Below, piece by piece: positions 3,215 to 60,922 of a DNA stretch of 63,588 nt (position 1 is the first letter of the stretch; every line of letters begins with the position of its first letter). The notes under the pieces were generated by a model. It ran no database searches and was not told the origin of the DNA. It was given only the letters and a program-made list of their open reading frames with translations. The DNA is taken from positions 1 to 63,588 of the forward strand of contig JBAZBL010000007.1 in assembly GCA_041671485.1 (NCBI GenBank). The letters are read 5' to 3'. The translations under genes and the position numbers were made by a program. Origin of the DNA: Minisyncoccota bacterium. GTDB lineage: Bacteria; Patescibacteriota; Minisyncoccia; Phycocordibacterales; PALSA-1337.

Positions 3215-3252
3215 GAATAGAAAAACTGTTTCTTATTCACAAAAAAACCTAT

Positions 3253-3279
3253 TTGACAGGCCATATTTTGTGCTATAAT
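3253..3279 (+). promoter_or_regulatory. Candidate sigma70-like promoter for the glutaredoxin-like gene
   Basis: TTGACA-N15-TATAAT with a TGc extended -10. The spacer is shorter than optimal. Confidence 0.4.
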
Positions 3280-3340
3280 AGTAGTCCTAGTCAATAAATT
3301 AGAAATTTATAAAAATATCTCACATAAAATAATAAATAAT

Positions 3341-3650: not shown

Positions 3651-3750
3651 TACGCTCCTCGCTTTGCTCGGAGCTTCGGCGGACCTTCGGTTCTTCATTC
3701 GCTTCGCTCATTCAGAACCTTCGGCCCGCCACAAAAAGTCCGAGCAAGAA
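3651..3750 (-). repeat. GC-rich palindromic element, copy 3 (inverted relative to copies at 38137 and 40792)
   Basis: Nested hairpin ttgctcgga...tccgagcaa. Its loop core cattcgcttcgctc is the reverse complement of gagcgaagcgaatg, which is identical in copy 2 (40792) and present with 2 single-nt insertions in copy 1 (38137). Confidence 0.6.
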
Positions 3751-3763
3751 ATCCATACTACTA

Positions 3764-4147
3764 TCATATCCCAAATACTTTCAACCATCTTTTCAACCAC
3801 GATATCTGTTTCGTCGTCTTTATAGGACTAGTCGTTGGAGCTGACGATTCATCTACAATAACAGCAACAGATTCACCTTCAAATGCCACACGAAATTTGC
3901 TTCTTATCTCTGATTCTATACCTCGATCTGTGGATAGATATGCAACCTTATCTTCCAAATCATTTTTTCTTGATTCAAGATTGTCTAGTGTAGCCTGCGC
4001 TTGTACCAGCCGATCCAAACTAGTATCATATTTCTTCATGATATTTATAGTTCCTTTGATAAGGAAAACAATAACAATCAAAAGTACAATAGATGAAAGT
4101 GGTGATGATACAATCTTTTTCCACGGTGATTGATTGCGATATTTCAT
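3764..4147 (-). CDS. FtsB/DivIC-like septum formation initiator
   Basis: 127 aa: N-terminal TM, a coiled coil, then ...GIESEIRSKFRVAFEGESV, typical of the family. Confidence 0.5.
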   Translation of the reverse strand: MKYRNQSPWKKIVSSPLSSIVLLIVIVFLIKGTINIMKKYDTSLDRLVQAQATLDNLESRKNDLEDKVAYLSTDRGIESEIRSKFRVAFEGESVAVIVDESSAPTTSPIKTTKQISWLKRWLKVFGI

Positions 4148-4276
4148 ACTCCAAAGTATACTATATCTAATGCTATTTCACGAAAAATCTAGAAAAGCGA
4201 TAAGTGTCGGCTTTATAGTTGTGGGCATTTTGGTCATCATAAGTATGATAATGCTTTACTTCCCTATCTGGAGACT

Positions 4277-10392: not shown

Positions 10393-10423
10393 GAAAACAC
10401 TCCTTTTGTGAAGGAGTGTTTTC
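10393..10423 (-). terminator. Hairpin terminator at the 3-prime end of rnpB
   Basis: gaaaacactcc-N9-ggagtgttttc, a perfect 11-bp stem. Confidence 0.6.
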
Positions 10424-10429
10424 CTGTGG

Positions 10430-10858
10430 ACTACTGCACAATAAGCCGAATTCTGTGCGAAGCACCCCGAGTTAAATCGAGGGGTTTCGGTAACAATTAT
10501 CTATCTAGCCCCAAGATTGTTCTCGGGGTCAAGCGACTCAGACCAAAAGCTATATTACTAGCTATTGGAATACGGTCTTGCACTGAAGTAAGGATTTTGC
10601 CGTTGCACTTCCTTGTTACCAAGGAATTCACCCTAAATATACTTGCGCATATCGAGGGTACCTCTGCCTTTCGGCTTTGGCGTCACTGTTCGCACCTCTA
10701 ATCAAAGACCAAATTGATTTGACGGGTATTACCCGCTACTATTCTGCCTTATGAAAGCGATCGCTATCCAATCTTCACAAGGCCAGTGTTCGGACTTTCC
10801 TCTCCTCGACTCGGTGCCAAATAGGCACCTCGCTCGGAGCAATTGTCTTGTGCAGCTA
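10430..10858 (-). ncRNA. rnpB: RNase P RNA (bacterial type A-like)
   Basis: The minus strand carries the universal P4 halves GAGGAAAGTCCGAAC and ACAGAATTCGGCTTAT. P1 pairs CTGCACAA with TTGTGCAG. The region is GC-rich, and the ORFs called here are spurious. Confidence 0.9.
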
Positions 10859-10892: not shown

Positions 10893-10915
10893 GATACTGT
10901 CCTTTTAGATATTTT

Positions 10916-11063
10916 AGCTTGGAGAATATGCTCCCTTACCTCCACGCAAAGTCACCATTCCAAATTGCAACCGCATTTGCTTACAAGGATTCAGCAAATG
11001 CGGGCAATTTGTTCATGGTTCAGATCGCATTGCGTGTCGGTTCGAGAGCATATTCTCCAAGCT
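10916..11063. repeat. 18-bp perfect inverted repeat enclosing a 112-nt structured core (element C)
   Basis: agcttggagaatatgctc ... gagcatattctccaagct. Inner hairpin accgcatttgct/agcaaatgcggg. The right arm ends 3 nt from the nrdJ stop codon. Confidence 0.6.
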
Positions 11064-11066
11064 AAA

Positions 11067-13394: not shown

Positions 13395-13548
13395 ATTGCG
13401 TTGCAGGCGGTGCGCCGCTAGTGCTTATTAATTGTTAATGATAATTTTCTGTAGTAAGTAAATTTATTCTACTCCGAGTATGCAAGGAGAGGAAGTGTGG
13501 ATAACGCTTTATAGCATGAGATTTCAAAAAAGTAAAAACTCTTTTGTT

Positions 13549-13738
13549 TTGTAAATATGAATATGCAATTTTGGAGTTCTGCGTAACTCGTTCGGTAAAT
13601 TTCTAGATAAAAGGCTCGGGGATTTGTAAACAAATCCCCACAACAACGCCTTTTACCAAGAAATTTATACTCACCCTGCCTGCCGGCAGGCAGGTCAAAC
13701 AGTACTCGATCTCCAAAATTGCATATTCATATTTACAA
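13549..13738 (-). repeat. Nested-hairpin structured element, copy A (core oriented on the minus strand)
   Basis: 28-bp perfect closing stem (13549-13576 / 13711-13738). The core shares 4 collinear conserved blocks with copy B at 17877-18069. Confidence 0.75.
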
Positions 13739-13741
13739 AGA

Positions 13742-17876: not shown

Positions 17877-18069
17877 CCCAAGAAGTGCTCTGATTTGAAT
17901 TTCGAGTACTGTTTGAGCGACTACAAATTGCTTGATAAAATGCGTATGTTGTGGGAATTGCTACGATACCGAGACATGAAATGTCGAGGTATCGAGCAAT
18001 TCAATAGCATTTTATCTAGCAATTTGAGGAGTGAGTTACGCAGAAATTCAAATCAGAGCACTTCTTGGG
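17877..18069 (+). repeat. Nested-hairpin structured element, copy B (core oriented on the plus strand)
   Basis: 27-bp perfect closing stem (17877-17903 / 18043-18069). The core shares conserved blocks with copy A, and all helices covary. Confidence 0.75.
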
Positions 18070-21541: not shown

Positions 21542-23614
21542 CTATAATTTGTGCCTAGCTCTATATTTTAATAATGAATCTGGGTTATTATAACTAGCAA
21601 TATCCTCATAACAATATCCATCCCTTTCTATTCCATTTGATGCTTTAATATTGATTGGGGTTAGTTTTAATTCATCAATAATCCGTTTTATGACTGTCCT
21701 ACTTTGCTTCACCTTTTCACCTATCGCGCGTTCTGATCCATAATGTTTACCCGACTCATCAATATAGAAATCTTTCCATTCTCCGGTCTTGAACACAAAT
21801 TTTCCTTCAAAAAAATCTCTGAGCAGATTCTGGAATCTGAAGTCATTTTTTAAAGCCTCTATGCAAAATACTTCGACCCTAGAATTATTTAGATTACGAA
21901 CAATTAATCTTTCAGTAACATCTTCCAAGTATTTGCTTATAGCACTTTTAGGAAGATTAAACTTCTTACACAAAACTTTTTCAGTTGTCCAGTGATTACT
22001 GTTTTTATCTACATAATATCCAGCCCACTCTCCGCTCTTTTCAACTTGAGGAAAAGAAAGATAGCCTTTCACTTCTTCTAGCATTAATAAATTCTCATAA
22101 CAATAACAATTGTCAACTCTTCCTGTTAAATCTCTAAGGCTTCTGCACACGACTTTATTTCTCGTAATAAACTTATTCAATGTATTCTCACGAAAGTTAA
22201 ATTTGGTTACAAGATTGTGTACATTAGCCCAGTGTTTCCCATTCTCGTCTATCCAAAATCCTTTCCATTCACCTTCAGAGATGACTTTAGGTAATTCTAT
22301 AAATTGTTTTACTATTTCTAAAGAAGCTAACTCTTCATAGCAATAAGCTTTAGTCCGTCTGTTTGATAAATCTCTCATCTCTATCCCCGATATATTTTTT
22401 TCAGATATACCTCTTTGAATCACAGACACGTGTACTCCTAATTTTGCTGATAGAACAGACAACGGTGCCAAATGTTTTCCATTAATTTCTGTATAAAAAC
22501 CTCTCCACTCTCCAGAGAGTTCTGATTTAGGTATTTTTTCGATAAAATCTTTTATGTAGTCCATTTGTAATACTTCCTCATAACAGTATGCCTCACATCT
22601 TCTATTCATTCCAGCTAGAATCGTCTTGGTTGAAAAGTCTTTAATTACCTTAAATAAACCTTGTTTGGCAATACCAATTTTTCTAGCAATAGCTGTAAAC
22701 GAAGCCCAGTGTTTCTCATTCTCGTCGGTCCAAAATCCTTTCCATGGATCAAATTCCGATGAGGAACTTTTTGGAAAGTCAAAATCTTGTTCCATTGTGT
22801 TCTGTTCTCTTTCTTCGACAGTCCTAGTACTTTCTACACTACTAGATAAGAGTTCACTTATATTTTCACGCCAATACTTTGTTTGAATAATTCTTCGACC
22901 AATATCTGGGAATTCTTTTATAAGATCGCTTCTTTCTTGCTTGGTCATTATATCCAATCTATCAAGAGCCAGACCCTGTTCTTCTAATTTACGAACATCA
23001 AAAATATAGCTGGCATTTCCTTCTTCCTCGCACACATATACCACCCTATTTAAAGGTTTTATTTCCACTCTAAAGTATGGCGTTTGTCTCATCATTTCTT
23101 CTGTTACTTGCCCTTGAATAAGATTGACTTGATCTCTAGAAATGCTGAAATCAGTTTCAAGAATATATAGAAGGGTAGTTAATCTTGGTATTAGTTTCTT
23201 TTTTTCAAAAGTCTCTTCTCCACTTGTTGGGACAGATTCTAAAGTGTCTGGAGGTGTAATAACATTATTTGTAAATTTTAATCTTTCATTAATAAACACC
23301 TCTATAGATTTAATCTGATCTATCTTTCTCTGTGCCCTATCTAGTAACTCACCTATATTTGGTAGACTATAATATATATAAGCCTCGTCTTCAAACTCCC
23401 TTATGGTTTTGTTGCTTTCAATCTTTTTCTTGTATCTTTGAATCACATCTTCTGTAAAAACAACAAGCTGATTTAAGGCGTCATTTGCAAATGTGTTTAT
23501 ATTTTCAACAGTTAAAGGAGCTTCGAGAATTGATGATAGACGAGCTTGAAGCTCTTTATTTTCCTCATATCTCAATCTGTTCTCGGTAGAAAAAGAAGGA
23601 TTTTCTGATGACAT
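21542..23614 (-). CDS. Hypothetical 690-aa protein with five tandem ~70-aa modules (W-x-G-F/Y-W/Y ... G-K-H-W ... C-Y-E)
   Basis: Internal repeats are visible in the translation, starting at WKGFWTDENEKHW, WRGFYTEINGKHL, WKGFWIDENGKHW, WAGYYVDKNSNHW and WKDFYIDESGKHY. Confidence 0.6.
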   Translation of the reverse strand: MSSENPSFSTENRLRYEENKELQARLSSILEAPLTVENINTFANDALNQLVVFTEDVIQRYKKKIESNKTIREFEDEAYIYYSLPNIGELLDRAQRKIDQIKSIEVFINERLKFTNNVITPPDTLESVPTSGEETFEKKKLIPRLTTLLYILETDFSISRDQVNLIQGQVTEEMMRQTPYFRVEIKPLNRVVYVCEEEGNASYIFDVRKLEEQGLALDRLDIMTKQERSDLIKEFPDIGRRIIQTKYWRENISELLSSSVESTRTVEEREQNTMEQDFDFPKSSSSEFDPWKGFWTDENEKHWASFTAIARKIGIAKQGLFKVIKDFSTKTILAGMNRRCEAYCYEEVLQMDYIKDFIEKIPKSELSGEWRGFYTEINGKHLAPLSVLSAKLGVHVSVIQRGISEKNISGIEMRDLSNRRTKAYCYEELASLEIVKQFIELPKVISEGEWKGFWIDENGKHWANVHNLVTKFNFRENTLNKFITRNKVVCRSLRDLTGRVDNCYCYENLLMLEEVKGYLSFPQVEKSGEWAGYYVDKNSNHWTTEKVLCKKFNLPKSAISKYLEDVTERLIVRNLNNSRVEVFCIEALKNDFRFQNLLRDFFEGKFVFKTGEWKDFYIDESGKHYGSERAIGEKVKQSRTVIKRIIDELKLTPINIKASNGIERDGYCYEDIASYNNPDSLLKYRARHKL

Positions 23615-31913: not shown

Positions 31914-33455
31914 TTATTTTATAGAATACTTTTTCATTATCTCTTCTTCAACTTTTGCCCTTTCTGCCCCATATTTCATTATAGACAATTGTCTCAACTT
32001 ATCCACTCGAGAAATATCTCCTTTTGGTGTTGGGCCCACTTTAACATTGAAAGGTTTCATTGGCTTTCCATTGACTAGAAGTTTGAGATAAGCGTGGAAA
32101 TTGTCTTGATTGATAATATCTTTTGCCAAAAATGTCGGTACAAGTTGTTTCTCTAGAAATTCTGCATCATCCGATCCGACACGATATATGGCCATAGAAC
32201 CAACGTTTCCAAATACAGCATTTTTTATCTTATCATCGAGTTGTCCTATGAATTGATGTGCAAGATTGAGTGATAGCCGATATTTCCTTGCTTCAGAGAG
32301 TATAACTGCAATAGAATCAGTAGTAATATTTTGAAATTCGTCTAGATAAAGATAGAAGTTTGGCATTTTATCTACTCGAGACAAAGCTGCCATAAGTATC
32401 TTGCCTACCAATATGAGACCTATCAAATGTGAATTGATATCCCCAAGTCTTCCTTTGGATAGATTTACTAGAAGGATCTTTTTATTGTCCATAACATCAC
32501 GGAAATCAAATGATGATTTCTCTTGCGCTATGATAGGACGCATAATTTCATTTGCCAAAAATACGTCAAATTTGGATGTAATATAAGGAACAATATTTGC
32601 AAGTGATGCTTCACCACCTGCCTTCTCTGCTATTTCACGCCAAAATTGCACAATGATCGGATTTTTGCATTTTGATATTTTGAGATCTCGAAATGCTTTA
32701 TTGGACATAACTCTCGATACATCGAGAAGTGTCGATCCACTTTCTGGATCTTCTATAACAAGTCCTGTAGCATTCCTGAAGTATTGCTCAAATATTGGCC
32801 CCATAGACTCCGGTACTGCTCCATAGAGTTTCTGAAATATTGAAAACATTTCATTTACAACAAATGTTTTTTGCTCTGGGAAACGCATATCGTATTCGAG
32901 CATATTGAGTGCCATTGGACGCTCTGTACTCGCTGGATCAAAATATATTACATCTTCATATCTCTCTTCAGGAATATTTGCCAATATATCAACTACATCA
33001 GAGCCATGTGGATCAATAAAACAAACTCCATCACCAGCCTGTATGTCTTGGATAATCATATTTTTGAGTAGAGTAGTCTTGCCTGTACCAGTCTGACCTA
33101 TGACATAGAAATGTCGCAGACGATCTTCTGGCGTGATGAATATCTTTGTTTCTTGACCTCGAAAATTATTGACGCCTAGGAAGGTTCCACTTTGAGTAAT
33201 TTCGATTGGAGCAGGGGCAATGCCAGAACCAGATTGTTTGAGTTGTGGAGCTGCATGATGTGTAGTAACTGAAGGAAAATGAATACATGTTGTAACTTCT
33301 TCTAGATTTAGTATCATTTGCTCGGTTTTATCATAGACTCTCATAGAAAATCTCTCTAGAATCTCTTCTAGTTTTTTTCTCTCTCCATTCTTCCACTCTA
33401 TACGATTGCCGTATCCATGCTCAAATTGATTGAAACTTGACTGTATATCATTCAA
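31914..33455 (-). CDS. Type IV secretion coupling-protein-like P-loop ATPase (TraG/TraD/VirD4-like), C-terminal part of a split gene
   Basis: Walker A GQTGTGKTT, Walker B-like YLYLDEFQN, and ARKYRLSLNLAHQ. The TTG start is doubtful because the frame stays open and protein-like upstream of it. Confidence 0.6.
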   Translation of the reverse strand: MNDIQSSFNQFEHGYGNRIEWKNGERKKLEEILERFSMRVYDKTEQMILNLEEVTTCIHFPSVTTHHAAPQLKQSGSGIAPAPIEITQSGTFLGVNNFRGQETKIFITPEDRLRHFYVIGQTGTGKTTLLKNMIIQDIQAGDGVCFIDPHGSDVVDILANIPEERYEDVIYFDPASTERPMALNMLEYDMRFPEQKTFVVNEMFSIFQKLYGAVPESMGPIFEQYFRNATGLVIEDPESGSTLLDVSRVMSNKAFRDLKISKCKNPIIVQFWREIAEKAGGEASLANIVPYITSKFDVFLANEIMRPIIAQEKSSFDFRDVMDNKKILLVNLSKGRLGDINSHLIGLILVGKILMAALSRVDKMPNFYLYLDEFQNITTDSIAVILSEARKYRLSLNLAHQFIGQLDDKIKNAVFGNVGSMAIYRVGSDDAEFLEKQLVPTFLAKDIINQDNFHAYLKLLVNGKPMKPFNVKVGPTPKGDISRVDKLRQLSIMKYGAERAKVEEEIMKKYSIK

Positions 33456-37356: not shown

Positions 37357-39711
37357 TCATTTTGCTACTTTCACTGCTTCTTCAAATGCAATAGATAATA
37401 GTCGAGAAGCGCCGTCAGATCCCATTGTTATGCCATAGAGAACTCCAGCACGAGACATTGTTTCGCGATTGTGAGTTATGAGTATGAGTTGGGATCTTCT
37501 AGATAGATCTTCTATCATATCTCCATATTTCTTTGAATTTGCTTCATCGAGTGCTGCATCAGTTTCGTCCAGAATGATAAAAGGTGGAGGATTGACTTGG
37601 GATATTGCAAACAGTAATGCTATTGAAGTCAATGCCCTTTCGCCACCAGAGAGCATCATTAGTCCTTTGACCTTTTTCCTAGGCAGACTGACATTTACTT
37701 CTAGTCCCAAGTAACCTTCTTCTTGTATTTCATTTTCTTCATCAATACTATTTGCAATCCTCTCTTCAGACAATATTTCATCCAATTCCCCTATATCACT
37801 CTTTTTTCGTCTTTTTATTTCTCTTACTGCTTCCAATTCGGCCTTACCACCACCAAACATGAGTACAAAGAATTTTTGGAATTCAGCATTTATTTTCAAA
37901 ATACCACTTTTGAATTCAAAATCAATACGCAGATCGAGATCTGTTATCATTTTGAGCAATTCTAACTTTGCTTTCGCCAGATCCTCCAATTCTTTCCCTA
38001 GAAATACATCTCTTTCTTCTGTCTCTCTATATTCCTTCATGACTTCATTGCCACCATAGCCACCAGCATCCTCGAGACGTATCTTTAATTTCTCGATTTG
38101 TCTTCTACGACTTTCTTGCGCATCTCGATCTATTCGGTCGTTCCCGTCGCAGGCGGCGACAAGTGTCGAACGAGGCGAAGCCGAATGTGAGACACTTCGT
38201 CGCGCCGAGGAGGGAACGACCGACAATTGGTCGGCTGACGCATAATCTAACACTTCCCTACCAATAATAATTCCTGCCTCTCCCAAATCCCTCTTCATAG
38301 ATTCTTCATCATGAATCACTTTGTTTAACTCATTTGTAAGATCAGAGACTATATTTCGTAGTTCATTTTGTTTTGCAATTATTCTAAAAACATCTTTTTC
38401 TGCATCACGATTTGTATCTTTCTCTTTCTCTAGAGATTCTTTTAGACCCACATATTTGTCATTTATCTTCTTCTCTTCTTCTATTATAGATCTCAATTTC
38501 TTTTCCAATTCACCTTTATCTCTCTCCAATTTGCCAACTTCTTCTTTGAGATCTACATTGAAGAGTGAATCTATTACTGATTTGTGTTTACCGATAAATT
38601 CTTTGAGAGTCTTTATGATCTCAGAGAAGAGTTTCCTGGCATCATCAAAAATACTAAAGCTTTCGATATTTCGAACAACTTCTTCTAGGTCTTTCAAATA
38701 TACAGTTTTCGATTCTTCATTTTTTATTTTATAATTCTCTTTTTCAATTGCCCTTTTATTTGCATTTATCTCTCCTTCTATCCTTCCAACATCCCTCATT
38801 ATCTCTTCCTTTTTACTCCTTTCCTCTCTCAACCTTTTTTCGAGTTCTATCAATTCATGGCTTTTATTGTCTTTATTCTTAGAATTGGTAAGCACATCCT
38901 TTGCTTTTTCGAGTTCCTTTTCGAGAAAAGCAAGATCTTTCCTTGGCTCTGACAGTAGAGTGGTCAATCTCTCTTTCTCTGTTTTTACATAATAGTCTTC
39001 AATAGAAAAATATTCTTTGTATAGAGTAGTTAGCTCTTTGCGCATCTCTTCTGCTCTCTCTACTTTCTCAACTTGTTTTTTCAAGAATTTCAAATGTGGT
39101 GCAATCTCTCTTCGCAATGATTCTACTTGATTCATATTTTCTTCTGTCTTTTCGAGCTTCCTTAGGCTTTCAATCTTTTTCCATTGATATACCTTAAGAC
39201 CGAGTGCATCTTCTATGATCTCTCTCCTTTCTCTCGTAGAAGCAGAAAGCACCCTATCTGCCTCTCCTTGAGATATGATATGGTGTCCTGTTGCTCCGAC
39301 ATGAGCATTTGCCAATAATTCAGCGATATCTCTCAAACGGACTTGACTGCCATTTAGTAGATATTCATTGGAATTATCTCTATGTACTATCCTCTCGACC
39401 ATTACTTCATCAAAATCAATATCTTTGAATATTCTCCTAGAATTGTCGAAAGCAAGTTTTACATTTGCTCTATTTGCCCTCCCTGTACCCGATGAACTAT
39501 CTCCCCCTCCATTCCAGATCATATCTTCTCCCCTCTTGCCTCGAAGAGACTTGATAGACTGCTCTCCTAGTACAAACTGGAAAGCTTCTGCAATATTGGA
39601 CTTGCCCGAACCATTTGGTCCAACAATGCCAGTTATCGCTGAAGTAAAAGACAGCGACGATTTTTTGGCAAATGATTTGAAACCAGAAAGCTCAAGGGAT
39701 TTGAGATACAT
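37357..39711 (-). CDS. smc: SMC-like chromosome partition ATPase (short, 784 aa)
   Basis: N-terminal Walker A GPNGSGKSN, long coiled coils, C-terminal signature LSGGERALTSIALLFA and Walker B ILDETDAALD. Confidence 0.85.
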   Translation of the reverse strand: MYLKSLELSGFKSFAKKSSLSFTSAITGIVGPNGSGKSNIAEAFQFVLGEQSIKSLRGKRGEDMIWNGGGDSSSGTGRANRANVKLAFDNSRRIFKDIDFDEVMVERIVHRDNSNEYLLNGSQVRLRDIAELLANAHVGATGHHIISQGEADRVLSASTRERREIIEDALGLKVYQWKKIESLRKLEKTEENMNQVESLRREIAPHLKFLKKQVEKVERAEEMRKELTTLYKEYFSIEDYYVKTEKERLTTLLSEPRKDLAFLEKELEKAKDVLTNSKNKDNKSHELIELEKRLREERSKKEEIMRDVGRIEGEINANKRAIEKENYKIKNEESKTVYLKDLEEVVRNIESFSIFDDARKLFSEIIKTLKEFIGKHKSVIDSLFNVDLKEEVGKLERDKGELEKKLRSIIEEEKKINDKYVGLKESLEKEKDTNRDAEKDVFRIIAKQNELRNIVSDLTNELNKVIHDEESMKRDLGEAGIIIGREVLDYASADQLSVVPSSARRSVSHSASPRSTLVAACDGNDRIDRDAQESRRRQIEKLKIRLEDAGGYGGNEVMKEYRETEERDVFLGKELEDLAKAKLELLKMITDLDLRIDFEFKSGILKINAEFQKFFVLMFGGGKAELEAVREIKRRKKSDIGELDEILSEERIANSIDEENEIQEEGYLGLEVNVSLPRKKVKGLMMLSGGERALTSIALLFAISQVNPPPFIILDETDAALDEANSKKYGDMIEDLSRRSQLILITHNRETMSRAGVLYGITMGSDGASRLLSIAFEEAVKVAK
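38137..38221 (+). repeat. GC-rich palindromic element, copy 1, embedded in frame in smc
   Basis: ggtcgttccc...gggaacgacc outer stem, gacaagtgtc/gacacttcgtc inner stem, loop gaacgaggcgaagccgaatgtga. About 85 percent identical to copy 2. Confidence 0.8.
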
Positions 39712-40066: not shown

Positions 40067-40765
40067 TCACCACCCCTTCACCTCGAGTGCCTTCTCTGCT
40101 GCTTTTTGTTCTGCCTCTTGTTTGGAAGGACCAGAACCAGTAGCGACTTGAACATCGCCTAGAAATACTCCCAAAGTGAATTGTTTATCATGGTCAGGAC
40201 CAATTTCCTTCAGAGTTCTATAAGATGGAGTAATACCCACTTTGTCTTGTGCAACTTCCTGGAAACGACTCTTTGCATCTATCCAAGTTTTGTTTTTGAC
40301 TATTTCTTCTATATCTATCGTGTTTAGCAAATGATTTGAGATAAAGTTGGCCGCAGCATTGTATCCACGATCTAGATATATAGCGCCTATTATTGCCTCT
40401 ACTGCATTGGCGAGAATAACGGAGCGGGCACGACCACCATCTTTGGCTTCACCTTTTGAAAGCAAAATGTAGTCATTCAAGTTTATAGATTGAGCAACTT
40501 TTGTGAGACTAACGGTATTCACGAGAGCAGAGCGGAATGCTGTTAGTTCACCTTCAGCTTTCTTTGTGTATTTCCTGAATAGGAAACTTGTCACTACCAA
40601 TTCCAATACTGCATCGCCTAGGAATTCTAGTCTTTCATTGTGTTCCATTCCAGAAACACGATTTTCATTCAAATAAGAGCGATGTGTACAAGCATTTTGC
40701 AAAAGCGAAATATCGTCAAATTCGACTCCTATTTTATCTGCAAATTCTTTGAAATCTGTTTTCAT
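40067..40765 (-). CDS. rnc: Ribonuclease III
   Basis: Signature ERLEFLGDAVL and a C-terminal dsRBD. Confidence 0.93.
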   Translation of the reverse strand: MKTDFKEFADKIGVEFDDISLLQNACTHRSYLNENRVSGMEHNERLEFLGDAVLELVVTSFLFRKYTKKAEGELTAFRSALVNTVSLTKVAQSINLNDYILLSKGEAKDGGRARSVILANAVEAIIGAIYLDRGYNAAANFISNHLLNTIDIEEIVKNKTWIDAKSRFQEVAQDKVGITPSYRTLKEIGPDHDKQFTLGVFLGDVQVATGSGPSKQEAEQKAAEKALEVKGW

Positions 40766-40791: not shown

Positions 40792-40881
40792 TTTTCGTCG
40801 CGACCGTCGAGGCGGCGACAAATGTCGAACGAGCGAAGCGAATGTGAGACATTTAGTCGCGCCGAGGAGGGAGCGACGAAA
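40792..40881 (+). repeat. GC-rich palindromic element, copy 2 (intergenic, rnc/nusB)
   Basis: ttttcgtcgc...gcgacgaaaa outer stem, gacaaatgtc/gacatttagtc inner stem, loop gaacgagcgaagcgaatgtga. Confidence 0.8.
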
Positions 40882-40887
40882 AATCGA

Positions 40888-41790
40888 TCATGTTTCTCCT
40901 TTACCCAAAGTCGTAACTGCCTTTGTAACTATTGGCAGAATATCATTATAAAAGTTTAGGTCAAGGATATCGGAGAGTTTGAACCATTTTGCATCATCTA
41001 GCCCTGGCTTTTCGGCTAGTCTCAACTTCTGGAATGATGACTCTGTCAAATAATAATGAACTTGTTTTCTGATCTTACCCACTTCTGGATCATTTGCTAT
41101 ATATTCATTCTGGCCTAGATCTGCTATTACAGAAACATCGAGTCCTATCTCTTCTTTGACTTTGGCAATTGTTCCCTCTTTTGGATCTATACCTTCAGGA
41201 ATCTTGCCTTTGGAAAGAGTCCAATGACCAAATGCATCATGAACAAAGGCCATATATACGTCTTTGCCATCTCTTGCATATACGACAGCTCCACCCAAAT
41301 GCTGTATTGGCATCTCCTCATATGGTACTTCAACCTTCTTTTTCTTCATTGGCGAAGCATCTTTACCTGGTTCGCCCAATTCTTTATAAACTGCACCCAA
41401 AACACCATTTACAAATCTTCCACTTGTATCTCCTCCATATGTTTTTGCGAGTTCAATAGCTTCATTGATTGCTACTTTGGCTGGCACTTCTTCTCTGTCA
41501 GAAAAAAGGAGTTCATAGAGACCTATTCTCAAAACATTCCTGTCCACTGTCCCCACCTTATCGAGTGGCCAGTCTGGAGCAGCCTTCTCTATCACATGAT
41601 CGATTTCCTCTTGTTTTGCGACAATACCATTCATCAATTTGTCTACAAATGAAATATCAGTTATACCAGGAGCAAATTCTTTTATATTTCTAGATAATAT
41701 AGCTTCTAAATCTTTGTTTCTGCGACCACAAAAATCCCACTCAAATAAAGATTGTAAAACGATTGATCTTGATAGATGGCGATTGGCCAT
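40888..41790 (-). CDS. nusB: NusB antitermination factor fused to a C-terminal Nudix-like domain
   Basis: The N-terminal 140 aa are NusB-like (LRIGLYELLF...AINEAIELAK). The C-terminal 150 aa carry a degenerate Nudix box GKIPEGIDPKEGTIAKVKEEIGL. Confidence 0.75.
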   Translation of the reverse strand: MANRHLSRSIVLQSLFEWDFCGRRNKDLEAILSRNIKEFAPGITDISFVDKLMNGIVAKQEEIDHVIEKAAPDWPLDKVGTVDRNVLRIGLYELLFSDREEVPAKVAINEAIELAKTYGGDTSGRFVNGVLGAVYKELGEPGKDASPMKKKKVEVPYEEMPIQHLGGAVVYARDGKDVYMAFVHDAFGHWTLSKGKIPEGIDPKEGTIAKVKEEIGLDVSVIADLGQNEYIANDPEVGKIRKQVHYYLTESSFQKLRLAEKPGLDDAKWFKLSDILDLNFYNDILPIVTKAVTTLGKGET

Positions 41791-43661: not shown

Positions 43662-44408
43662 TTATTTCTTAATTACTTTTTCAAAACTCGAATTGTAATC
43701 GACCAACTTTTCCCAATTGATTTTTCCATCATCACAAAAATTTTGTGAAAACTCTAGTGTAAGTTTATTTATTATTTGAGCATACTTCTCCATAAATTCC
43801 TCATTTCTCTCCTTTGCCTTGTAACCAATCGGCTCAACTATGTCAATATATAATTTTTTATTTCCAGAAATAAGTTCCCAGAATCTTTGTCCGCACAATT
43901 TCAAATAACCATTTTTATCAGGTTTATTATCTCTACCGAAACAACACCCATTAATAGCAACAACTTTTTTGCTAGTTTTTTTATGCAATAATTTTTTTGC
44001 ATTCTCAAAATTGATTTTAAGCTGACGGATTTGGCTTGAATTACCCCAGTTCCAGCCTGCTTTGATTTCAATAATATATACTATCCCATCTTTTTCAAAT
44101 TCCAGATCTATCCCTGTCAACTCTGATTTTTTAGCACCATATACTTTATCACAAACAAAAATCGCTAAACCCTCAATAAAGTCGCCAAAAAGTGTTTCCT
44201 CCTGAGATTGTAAAAAAGCATCTAAAAAGCCTTTGATCAAATCCTGGGCGGTTAATACATTCTTAGCCCTAAAAAGATATGGGTTTTTCTGTTTAAGAAT
44301 CTTGTACAAATCGACCTTATTTTGTACATAATCTAATCTCCTTTGGTGGAAGATTGAAATATGTTCCTCTACATATCCATGGACTTCTTGCAGGTTAAAT
44401 TTTTTCAT
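43662..44408 (-). CDS. Type II restriction endonuclease candidate (PD-(D/E)XK)
   Basis: Motif GIDLEF...YIIEIKAG (D...E-x-K). Start overlaps the methylase stop by 4 nt. Confidence 0.6.
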   Translation of the reverse strand: MKKFNLQEVHGYVEEHISIFHQRRLDYVQNKVDLYKILKQKNPYLFRAKNVLTAQDLIKGFLDAFLQSQEETLFGDFIEGLAIFVCDKVYGAKKSELTGIDLEFEKDGIVYIIEIKAGWNWGNSSQIRQLKINFENAKKLLHKKTSKKVVAINGCCFGRDNKPDKNGYLKLCGQRFWELISGNKKLYIDIVEPIGYKAKERNEEFMEKYAQIINKLTLEFSQNFCDDGKINWEKLVDYNSSFEKVIKK

Positions 44409-45253
44409 ACAGTTAATTTGTTATGAACGAATAAGGACGACTCTTTTTGTGCAATCTTCTTTTTAGCCATTTCAACGTATTCTGACATTATATCAATACC
44501 AATAGAATTACGTCCCATCTTTTGTGCAACTTCTGATGTGGTGCCAGAACCCAAAAATGGATCCAGAACAAAATCGTTTTCTCGAGTAAATAATTTGATA
44601 AACCATTCTGGTAACTCTTCCGGAAAAGCAGCACTGTGATTTTTGTTATTACAAACAGTTGCGAATTGCAAGACATTGCTAGGAAAAACCATGCTTCGTT
44701 TCAACCAATTGGAAATATTTTTACCAAACCCACTACCATTCTTAGAATTATCTCGTATTTTATCTGTTTCACTAAGATTTTTTAAACGTCCGTAAGCCCA
44801 ATCACCAACTGGTATCATTACTGATTCTTGGTACATATTAAAATCGCGTGCTTTATTAAATTGCAACACTCGTTCCCACGAATCACGAAAACGATTTGGC
44901 CATTTACCAGGATAACAATTTTTCTTATGCCAGATAAATTCTTCAGTCCATAACCAACCCTGCTTACGCAATGCTAAAATAAGTTCAAGTACATAGGTAC
45001 TACGCTCACCATTTTCTGCTTTTTCCTTGATATTTAAAATAAACGTACCAGTCGGCTTTAATACACGTAATAATTGTTCGCTAATAGGTAAAAACCACTC
45101 GACATATTTTTCAGTGCTAATACCGCCATAGGTATTTTTTCTTCTATCTGCATAAGGTGGTGATGTAACAATCAAGTCAATAAAATTATCATCAACTGTT
45201 TTAAGAATTTTCCGCGAATCACCAAGTAATATTTTTGTTGTTACATTAAGCAT
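44405..45253 (-). CDS. DNA methyltransferase, beta-class N4/N6 (SPPY)
   Basis: Catalytic motif TSPPYADRR is N-terminal and the SAM motif DPFLGSGTT is C-terminal. Confidence 0.85.
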   Translation of the reverse strand: MLNVTTKILLGDSRKILKTVDDNFIDLIVTSPPYADRRKNTYGGISTEKYVEWFLPISEQLLRVLKPTGTFILNIKEKAENGERSTYVLELILALRKQGWLWTEEFIWHKKNCYPGKWPNRFRDSWERVLQFNKARDFNMYQESVMIPVGDWAYGRLKNLSETDKIRDNSKNGSGFGKNISNWLKRSMVFPSNVLQFATVCNNKNHSAAFPEELPEWFIKLFTRENDFVLDPFLGSGTTSEVAQKMGRNSIGIDIMSEYVEMAKKKIAQKESSLFVHNKLTV

Positions 45254-55710: not shown

Positions 55711-56511
55711 TTAGAGTTTCAATCTTGCATTTCCTTTTGTATTTGCTTTCTTCAATTCCCCTTGCACATCTCTTGCAGCTTTCCTGTATGCACAAAAATC
55801 ACAATCATCTCCTGCTTTGGGTGGATTTTCAGACATTAGACATGTTTTTATCTTGGGTAATATAGGATCTATCCAAGAAGGATCACCTTTGCAAGGAAGC
55901 AATACGACATCAAATTCTAGCTTTTTATCAAATGCTTCTCTATCTTTATTACCATTTACATATACAAAATATCCTGTAGGAGATACCTTGAAGCCATTCA
56001 TGCGAAATAACCATTGATAAACTTCCATTTGTCTTTTGTATTGTTCGCCTAGTCTGCCTTCTAGCGTTATCTCATCTCTTTTTGAAGTTGCTTTATAGTC
56101 AACTATTATCAATTCTTCTTTCTTATTGACCCAGACATCGTCTACTCCACCCCTTACAGAGAGATTTGTTTCTCTATGTAAATATTCTATTCCCCTCCTC
56201 ATCGAATCTCTCCATTCTTCCATTCTCGGATCGTCAAATGGCAAAGCATCTATTTTATAAGATTCCATGAATGGGTGGCGGGTCTTTGCAACTCTATGTA
56301 TATCAAATTCTCTTTTTAGGAGTTCATCTACTGCTATATTTAGAGTGAGAGGAAATGAAGGTGGTCGCCCTACACCGAGTCTTTGATCGAGATAGAAACA
56401 GAGTGGACAGTCGATGAATAGATCTATCTTACTTCTACTTATGCGGTGTGGTTGCGTAGAATTGGGATCAAAGATCCCCCGTGTTTTCCTAGGTTTATAG
56501 TATTCGCTCAT
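55711..56511 (-). CDS. PD-(D/E)XK nuclease, Cas4/RecB-like, with four Cys
   Basis: IVDYKATSK motif with N-terminal CPLC and C-terminal CDFC, suggesting an Fe-S or Zn site. Confidence 0.65.
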   Translation of the reverse strand: MSEYYKPRKTRGIFDPNSTQPHRISRSKIDLFIDCPLCFYLDQRLGVGRPPSFPLTLNIAVDELLKREFDIHRVAKTRHPFMESYKIDALPFDDPRMEEWRDSMRRGIEYLHRETNLSVRGGVDDVWVNKKEELIIVDYKATSKRDEITLEGRLGEQYKRQMEVYQWLFRMNGFKVSPTGYFVYVNGNKDREAFDKKLEFDVVLLPCKGDPSWIDPILPKIKTCLMSENPPKAGDDCDFCAYRKAARDVQGELKKANTKGNARLKL

Positions 56512-60289: not shown

Positions 60290-60922
60290 GGCAGAGTCTT
60301 TCTCCCTGCCTACTGTCCCTTTTTTCCGATCTTTATTTTGATGGGTGCCGGGCGAGCTTATGCAGGCCACGGTCTCGCCGTCGATATCTCCTTTCCGGTG
60401 GATTACCACCGGTGGTAGACCGACGGACAGAAGCGTGGTCGCAGTGCAAAGGAATCTCGTCGTCGAGACGAGCTCCTCTTAGCGCCGCGCCAGGCACCCG
60501 TTTCTTAACAGGATCCAATTAACGCTGATACAAAGTATGCAAAACTCTGTATCATCAAACCTACTGACCTATTGACCACCGAGGTCCAAATAAGGTCTGT
60601 AAGGTCTGATTGCGTTTTACGGCCTTTCAAGGAGTGAACTTCTCGAGTAAACCCCAGCGTAAGTTGCATCTTGACGCTTAGGAAGACCAAGAGAAGTTTC
60701 GAAACTCACTCCTTAACTCAAGACGTGGAATTCGCTGTCTGCGAACTTCCACGCCAAGAGCAAGCTCTAAGGCGTAATTCTTGCCTTTAAGGTCGCTAGC
60801 GTTAAGATGGGATCCAAAAAATCATCTAAACACGCGCTCCACTCCGACTTCTAGAAATAGAAAGCAGAGTGGAACACGCATTTATTTGATTCGTAAGATC
60901 AGATATCAATGTACTTAACTGC
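60290..60922 (-). ncRNA. Unclassified ~630-nt GC-rich structured non-coding RNA candidate
   Basis: Bounded by a consensus promoter and a terminator. There is no credible ORF, and many local and long-range helices are present. No match to tmRNA, SRP or RNase P signatures that I can recognise. Confidence 0.55.

Follow-up and report, generated by a model that had tools for sequence, protein, structure and literature searches.

A 90-nt GC-rich imperfect palindrome lies in frame inside the smc gene of a Minisyncoccota bacterium (GTDB Patescibacteriota, PALSA-1337). Our analysis of the 63,588-nt stretch of contig JBAZBL010000007.1 that carries it (assembly GCA_041671485.1; the window) suggests that this element, W1, belongs to a small family of palindromic repeats that are non-autonomous, GC-rich and selfish or neutral, and that resemble the repetitive extragenic palindromic (REP) sequences, the related REPINs and the Rickettsia palindromic elements (RPEs). 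We put the probability of this reading at about 0.75. The W repeats would have spread as DNA, both in this Paceibacteria-type genome and in one or more other organisms. Copies would persist where they do little harm, either just past stop codons or, within genes, in frame in disordered loops at the protein surface. In smc, the copy would simply be translated and would lengthen a natural break of the coiled-coil arm by about 30 unstructured residues.

A GC-rich palindrome in frame within smc

W1 occupies positions 38134..38223 on the plus strand (30 codons), antisense to smc (37357..39711, minus strand), which encodes a hingeless SMC-like ATPase of 784 aa. An initial annotation had described a GC-rich hairpin in frame at 38137-38221; the hairpin is present, its limits are slightly wider, and the translation given for the insert was exact. 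The element encodes the stop-free peptide SVVPSSARRSVSHSASPRSTLVAACDGNDR, which in its context reads ...SADQLSVVPSSARRSVSHSASPRSTLVAACDGNDRIDR..., although five of the six reading frames of W1 lack stops, so that its readability is unremarkable for a GC-rich sequence. At a GC content of 0.64, compared with a window mean of 0.37, W1 is the strongest-folding GC island of the region. It is composed of a near-invariant core (~38143-38214) and two copy-specific basal arms (38134-38142 and 38215-38223).

The smc open reading frame (ORF) matches only the SMC_N and P-loop models of Pfam, with no match to a hinge domain. Its closest orthologs are from Patescibacteria (Parcubacteria/Paceibacteria, 'Ca. 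Taylorbacteria'), share at most 70% identity and are mostly 745-770 aa long. The W1 segment is absent from the orthologs and, in an alignment of 67 of them, falls in a hypervariable linker bounded by the conserved motifs LGEAGxxxGREA and QIEKIKIRLED. In the window this linker covers 38086..38250 (minus strand; residues 488-542, between the conserved GREV and IEKLKIRLED), and a narrower delimitation (residues 488-537) gives 50 aa. We surveyed linker length in the window and 84 related loci, 80 of which are GTDB species representatives and four of which were picked for their long linkers. Across these 85 loci the linker is mostly 20-34 aa, and the 50 aa found here equal 20 aa plus the 30-codon hairpin. 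As far as sequence comparison goes, the segment is thereby shown to be an insertion relative to the orthologs, as the initial annotation had proposed. One SMC ortholog of 1351 aa from a related lineage (P0058) has Pfam intein-splicing and LAGLIDADG domains and appears to be an intein-containing SMC.

A second copy in the nusB-rnc spacer

The near-identical intergenic copy that had also been reported is found at 40792..40882 (plus strand; core ~40804-40871). W2 is a 91-nt palindrome in the same orientation as W1, and the two are 91% identical across a 70-nt core and 83% identical across 141 nt with flanks. It lies 6 nt past the stop codon (40888) of a nusB-NUDIX fusion gene (40888..41790, minus strand), which lies directly upstream in the direction of transcription, and rnc, encoding RNase III (40067..40765, minus strand; start at 40765), lies directly downstream. 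The gene order nusB-rnc-smc-PAP2-phosphatase is conserved in relatives, in four of which (L001, L003, L009 and L011) the nusB-rnc spacer measures 0-17 nt versus 122 nt here. Both conserved blocks of the element occur exactly twice in the window, where dinucleotide shuffles lead us to expect 0.03 and 0.00 occurrences.

Both copies fold far better than shuffled sequences, as RNA (z of -6.6 for W1 and -5.8 for W2 on the plus strand, -4.9 and -3.8 on the minus strand) and as DNA (-5.6 and -6.0). The strand transcribed in the operon reaches -51.8 (W1) and -37.0 (W2) kcal/mol compared with -61.9 and -48.4 kcal/mol for its complement, and the conserved G.U pairs of the plus strand are A.C mismatches on the transcribed strand. 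No Rfam 15 family matched W1 or W2 at the gathering threshold, and the best permissive match was to an HDV-like ribozyme (16.8 bits against a threshold of 44). A function as intrinsic terminator was considered and rejected, as a terminator scan gave no site at W1 or W2 and the T-run is 5' of the stem on both strands. An independent ENA assembly (ERZ27249449, contig k141_1528497) is 99.99% identical over 16.5 kb and has both copies unchanged, which argues that W1 and W2 are not an assembly chimera.

Copies in dus and a glycosyltransferase gene

Further copies were found by a search of 5.8 billion proteins with the concatenated six-frame translations of W1 and W2. Two proteins matched, P0121 and P0122; a second search with a cleaned peptide query returned the same two, and the window's own SMC was returned by neither, indicating imperfect recall for short segments. 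P0121 is a tRNA-dihydrouridine synthase (Dus) encoded on contig k141_382806 of the same ENA assembly (locus L215; GC 0.369). Its copy, Dus-B (L215 10931-11016), is in frame, is 98.6% identical to the W1 core and is read in plus-strand frame 2 (GRPRRRRRQVSNEAKPNVRHFVAPRRGRPS). P0122 is a GT4 glycosyltransferase from another organism and sample (locus L216; GC 0.46), in which an in-frame copy at L216 1853-1936, 96.5% identical to the W1 core, is read in plus-strand frame 1 (LPSQVATSVERGEAECETLRRAEEGA). With the minus-strand reading in smc, the three host genes together use three reading frames and both orientations, and it is therefore the nucleic acid, rather than the peptide, that is conserved.

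Upstream of Dus-B, P0121 contains a second, composite insertion of 58 aa (Dus-A; L215 ~10410-10590, residues ~141-199), in which a reversed half of the W element (GCTCCCTCCTCGGCGCGACGAAGTG) is fused to a 90-nt hairpin of another type (G7/C7 stem). From its sequence, Dus-A looks like a nested or rearranged insertion. Both Dus-A and Dus-B are located in loops that are short or absent among 23 Dus orthologs. W1, W2, Dus-B and the reversed Dus-A fragment are thus found on two contigs of one assembly, and a further copy is present in another organism.

A covariance model (R1) built from the four copies W1, W2, Dus-B and GT4 scored 89-114 bits on them (113.9 for W1, 88.6 for W2). Across 1.47 Mb of orthologous Patescibacteria loci it found nothing convincing beyond these training copies, with weak extra matches to the second Dus-A hairpin (L215 10493-10582, 22.7 bits) and to one site at E=8.7, which indicates that the family is narrow at the sequence level. 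A diverged 84-nt hairpin adjoining tRNA-Gly in the window (W3; 3664..3747, minus strand; fold z -5.1) has an apex in common with W2 (GAATGAGCGAAGCGAATGAAGAAC, 20/24 bases) and a different stem; since R1 did not detect W3 at E<=10, the apex is what ties it to the family. A W 17-mer had four chance matches in IMG/VR, on GC-rich contigs, and the 14-mer GAGCGAAGCGAATG had at least 120 matches there, mostly chance and uninformative. Window proteins used as queries for more of this genome returned short Logan contigs only, and about 84 kb of the genome is covered in this study.

A near-invariant core and copy-specific basal stems

The compensatory stem changes that had been noted between the two window copies are confirmed: W1 and W2 differ by double changes in one inner pair (G-C to A-T) and three outer pairs (C-G/T-A, G-C/C-G and T-A/C-G), and W2 also has a tandem G.A/A.G mismatch. 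In the alignment of the four copies, 98.5% of pair cells are standard pairs, and at six pairs both partners are changed; five of the six belong to the basal helix (outer 12 bp). None of 500 shuffles reached these pairing and covariation values, and slid controls gave 30-44% pairing. The changes are not evenly spread. Among W1, Dus-B and GT4, only 1-3 bases vary within the 72-nt core, in which the bulges are fixed and two G.U pairs are conserved. The basal 6-12 bp are different in every copy and still paired (5' and 3' arms: TCGGTCGTT and AACGACCGA in W1, GGCCGAC and GTCGGCC in Dus-B, GTCGCT and AGCGAC in GT4, TTTTCGTCGC and GCGACGAAAA in W2). Uniform mutation combined with compensatory selection is not easily squared with a constant core and a variable stem. 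Template switching within quasi-palindromes can transfer a change from one arm to the other, and compensatory changes, although real, need not mean selection.

Given that the cores are near-identical, that the basal stems differ yet pair, and that copies occur in pairs less than 3 kb apart, we infer that W was copied in a structure-dependent manner, by way of either a template switch or a hairpin intermediate of single-stranded DNA, and not by a classical transposase acting on terminal inverted repeats. The effect on the host would be neutral, or the element selfish.

Placement of the insertion in the predicted SMC structure

The insertion had been placed at the apex of the coiled coil, at the site of the missing hinge, and this part of the initial annotation did not hold up. 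In an AlphaFold2 model based on the 67-sequence alignment (predicted template modelling score 0.38), helices are predicted at residues 173-277 and 280-334, with shorter ones at 339-350 and 358-376, followed by 383-482, 523-549 and 554-619. A low-confidence turn is modelled at residues 377-381, and the W1-encoded residues 497-524 are modelled as disordered (predicted local distance difference test <50) between confident helices. Antiparallel matching of the helix lengths would place the coiled-coil tip at about residue 380, so that the insertion is probably not at the apex. It would instead lie in the descending arm, at an elbow-like break that is some 100 residues from the tip and faces the one at 278-279 of the ascending arm. 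More generally, these Patescibacteria SMCs (P0002-P0120) are hingeless proteins of about 750 aa, with a predicted coiled coil that turns at a 5-residue loop near residue 380.

Other hairpins in SMC linkers and between genes

All seven SMC genes with a linker of at least 42 aa (window, L001, L009, L010, L011, L012 and L071) have a strong linker hairpin (z -3.1 to -14.2). At least six Patescibacteria lineages other than that of the window have a hairpin in this loop, and the sequences are mostly unrelated; the L001 hairpin resembles the W family, in the opposite orientation relative to smc compared with W1. Such inserts occur in only two of the 80 species-representative loci, and the SMC linker hairpins are sporadic, independent events at a permissive site. 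When the whole hairpin is subtracted from the linker, 18-20 residues remain in W1, L001, L009 and L010 and about 12 in L011 and L012, against a baseline of 20. The L010 hairpin has a perfect 33-bp stem within the coding region. L009 has three hairpins within 1 kb (3223-3296, 3676-3732 and 4137-4208) that combine the apex GCGCTGTGGGCCAGCG with three unrelated stems; the apex is identical in two of them and in the third continues with AC instead of GC. One is just past the smc stop codon; the others are both in frame, each in a different loop of SMC. The arms of the third L009 hairpin encode EIF and EDF and are in-frame reverse complements of each other.

A similar build is seen in two further foldback families of the window. 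F2 has copies at 13548-13739 and, as reverse complement, 17877-18069 (192 and 193 nt; RNA minimum free energies of -88 and -101 kcal/mol). The two have the internal modules TTCTGCGTAACTC and TCAAACAGTACTCGA in common within unrelated, perfect outer stems of 25-29 bp, and they are intergenic, in opposite orientations, 2 and 12 nt past the upstream stop codon. F3, at window 10913-11066 and L215 19937-20082, has an 88-nt core (CGCAA..CCATTCCAAATTGCAACCG...CATTGC) that is about 92% identical, within outer stems particular to each copy; in the window, F3 abuts the stop codon of a ribonucleotide reductase gene. L069 is likewise conserved inside and copy-specific, self-complementary outside. Intergenic copies lie no more than ~15 nt past the upstream stop codon, and their outer stems often end in A/T tracts like those of the long palindromic terminators common in these genomes, suggesting that some cores may have landed in pre-existing hairpin loops. 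For the coding copies such a landing is unlikely, since removal of the whole hairpin leaves about the baseline linker in W1, L001, L009 and L010. The same arithmetic argues against the idea, considered for W1 and L010, that one basal arm is native target sequence.

Some apices are enriched beyond expectation. GCGAAGC, an unusually stable DNA mini-hairpin, occurs 243 times versus 108 expected in all loci (1.42 Mb), and the apex motif GAGCGAAGCGAA occurs six times versus 0.1 expected, often atop long hairpins with unrelated stems. The apical motif GAGCGAAGCGA was rejected as a superfamily marker; it is enriched (six exact occurrences versus 0.1 expected), yet is also found in ordinary coding sequence. 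A tandem array of ~140-nt units at L023 3848-4368 has a tRNA 3'-end-like TTCGAGTCCTCTC motif and GAGCGAAGCGAA-apex hairpins in each unit.

GC-rich hairpins inside ORFs were also observed at L046 4877-6110, L040 4404-4455, L012 1697-1752 (in the gene for DNA polymerase III alpha), L080 4236-4334, L062 13223-13340, L035 and L036 (SMC, ~10741 and ~7670) and L037 2788-2829. Their GC content is 0.55-0.76 in Patescibacteria genomes of 0.38-0.53, the ORFs encode 708-1087 aa, and judging by sequence they may be further in-frame palindromic insertions. Elsewhere in the window, a 197-nt intergenic region at 60324-60520 (GC up to 0.65; -0.48 kcal/mol per nt; no permissive Rfam match) may be either a further foldback element or a structured RNA that has gone unrecognised. 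The ORF at 21542-23614, whose 690-aa product has no Pfam match, contains at 21737-22745 four diverged copies of a 43-nt repeat at spacings of 237-489 nt; these internal repeats point to an internally repetitive protein. The window also encodes an N6/N4 DNA methyltransferase with an EcoO109I-like restriction enzyme (43662-45253), a TraG/VirD4-like coupling ATPase (31914-33455) and a PD-(D/E)XK/Cas4-like nuclease (55711-56511), none of which adjoins a repeat copy.

Origin of the W family and alternative explanations

Several observations weigh against the reading of W as a dispersed repeat family. The flanks of the four copies (TAT/CAA, TTG/ATC, TTT/CAG and ATG/ATC) have no direct repeat and no consistent target-site duplication. 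No transposase, REP-associated tyrosine transposase (RAYT), IS200/IS605 TnpA or homing endonuclease was found among the ~50 window ORFs, and the Pfam annotation of L004 and L215, within the ~84 kb covered, likewise includes no RAYT or transposase. The known set is small, with four clear copies, one fragment and one diverged relative, and ~84 kb of this genome is covered. We found no empty-site allele and observed no movement. The exact pattern GTCGCGCCGAGGAGGGANCGAC had no match in GTDB genomes or JGI metagenomes, and none of the three metagenome matches to the apex pattern GAAYGAGCGAAGCGAATGWRRRAC was at a hairpin apex. Constraint, in place of recent spread, could account for the 96-99% core identity between two organisms, and the presence of W1 and W2 in one operon beside rnc is also compatible with a regulatory role.

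A broader proposal, which we regard as tentative and on balance doubtful, is that a general process in Patescibacteria copies stable mini-hairpin cores, such as GGCGAAGCC/GCGAAGC in the window and GCGCTGTGGGCCAGCG in L009, and that each copy acquires or builds its own complementary stem. The stem would arise by fold-back copying of adjacent DNA, or the core would land in an existing hairpin loop. If true, this would explain the constant inside and variable outside of W, F2, F3, the L009 triplet and L069, as well as the repeated occurrence of in-frame hairpin peptides in essential genes (smc, dus and perhaps dnaE) across lineages.

A related but somewhat less probable explanation dispenses with any transposase or dedicated element. 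Template switching or fold-back priming would copy a stable mini-hairpin core to a nearby site, and the stem would be made by inverted copying. Consistent with such a mechanism, two or three copies cluster within 0.5-3 kb (W1/W2, Dus-A/Dus-B and three in L009), near-invariant cores carry perfectly paired basal or outer stems specific to each copy, and neither a transposase nor a target-site duplication was found. Further support is provided by the perfect coding stem of L010 and the reverse-complementary EIF/EDF arms in L009. A purely local mechanism is, however, insufficient for near-identical cores on two contigs and in a second organism of different GC content. The residues left upon hairpin subtraction also suggest that both arms were inserted, rather than one arm being native.

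It is unlikely, though compatible with a mobile origin, that W1 and W2 serve as RNA regulatory elements of the nusB-rnc-smc operon, as double-stranded RNA substrates through which RNase III would tune rnc and smc. There are precedents: in E. coli a hairpin in the 5' leader of rnc tunes the rnc level through RNase III, and Correia and REP elements act as modulators at the level of RNase III or RNA (PMC3733652). W2 is directly upstream of rnc and W1 is within the large gene that follows in the minus-strand operon, the stems of both reach at least 30 bp, and L009 has three related hairpins in and just past smc. In contrast, the spacer hairpin is absent from all four relatives examined, the Dus and GT4 copies occupy unrelated genes, where their orientation to transcription is the reverse, and it is the transcribed strand that folds worse, with A.C mismatches in place of the G.U pairs.

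We consider it very improbable that the mature SMC lacks the segment because of excision before or after translation, in the manner of a mini-intron or an intein. Patescibacteria are known for intervening sequences in their rRNA genes, and the intein/LAGLIDADG domains of P0058 set a precedent within SMC itself. At 90 nt, W1 is nevertheless much too short for any self-splicing intron or intein, and it has no Rfam match above noise. Moreover, all three genic copies are in frame and stop-free, which would be needless if they were excised, an argument weakened by the fact that two of the three were found through protein searches. Just as implausible is a host-selected SMC module, for example a substitute for the missing hinge: the peptide does sit in a conserved coiled-coil break between strongly conserved motifs, but every ortholog does without it, it is predicted to be disordered and probably away from the apex, and in other proteins this DNA is translated in two further frames. 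An assembly chimera, of the kind that GC-rich palindromes can cause, can practically be dismissed, since two assemblies match base for base over the 16.5 kb and related copies are present in contigs of other samples.

Significance of in-frame palindromes in Patescibacteria

Patescibacteria have tiny, streamlined genomes that are usually described as poor in mobile DNA. Repeats that write peptides into the products of essential genes such as those for SMC, Dus and a glycosyltransferase suggest that selfish palindromes still shape Patescibacteria proteins, in parallel to the reduced genomes of Rickettsia. Such inserts inflate or confuse protein alignments, domain boundaries and structure predictions of proteins from the candidate phyla radiation, and they mark permissive loops, here in a hingeless SMC at a break of its coiled coil. 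Should the contrast between conserved core and variable stem reflect fold-back or hairpin-targeted copying, W would offer a tractable natural system for the origin and growth of palindromes in bacterial chromosomes.

Comparison with known repeat systems

[quoted passage not shown] In both cases the insertion sites fit the protein fold and the host genome is small, AT-rich and reduced. W shows three defining features of an RPE-like functional class, with several dispersed copies, in-frame insertions absent from orthologs (SMC and Dus) and fold-compatible sites. The analogy to RPEs drawn in the initial annotation is apt in that the element is read through in frame, and it is strengthened by the Dus and GT4 copies in other frames and orientation. 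Unlike RPEs, W is found in a different phylum and, at 84-91 nt, is shorter than RPE-1 (~100-150 bp). For RPEs the encoded peptide is reported to be conserved; W uses three frames and cannot be defined by its peptide. There are also 44 RPE insertions in R. conorii, compared with 4-6 known members of the W family.

REPs tagged with GTAG or CGTC have been found inside genes in several phyla, where they are often dimers, encode 20-30 aa and are conspicuous in genes for DNA replication and repair and for tRNA pseudouridine synthases (Di Nocera et al., PMC3733652). RPE-4 and RPE-6 are themselves CGTC REPs, for which no transposase is known (PMC3733652). As in W, the head-to-head GTAG or CGTC dimers of the REP/REPIN type are palindromic and can fold into a single large stem-loop, and stem variants have compensated changes. 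Intergenic REPs resemble W2 in lying <20 nt past the upstream stop codon between co-directional genes, and intragenic REPs resemble W in the 20-30 aa that they encode and in their preference for DNA-metabolism and tRNA-modification genes. A CGTC is present at alignment columns 14-17 of all four W copies, but it is partly paired, unlike the unpaired REP tag. W is also without the CGTC-REP unit of 20-40 bp, with its unpaired tag, 8-9-bp stem, 4-5-nt loop and 3-nt (CCA) tail. It has instead a single conserved 72-nt core with fixed bulges, a low known copy number and no RAYT seen.

MITEs such as Correia/CREE, ERIC, RUP and BOX are, like W, short, non-autonomous and hairpin-forming, are sometimes co-transcribed and occasionally form in-frame ORF fusions (PMC10969869). 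They have conserved terminal inverted repeats and a target-site duplication (TA for Correia), whereas the termini of W are its most variable part and no duplication is seen.

The mobile GC clusters of yeast mitochondria are optional short GC-rich palindromes in a very AT-rich genome, and occur in frame in var1. They are organellar, ~30-60 bp long and flanked by a characteristic duplication, and have nothing in common with W in sequence. Consistent with the initial annotation, which knew of no such family in genomes of this kind, we found no published description of such repeats in Patescibacteria. W is an RPE/REP-like repeat in a phylum where we found none described, and the kind of repeat itself is known elsewhere.

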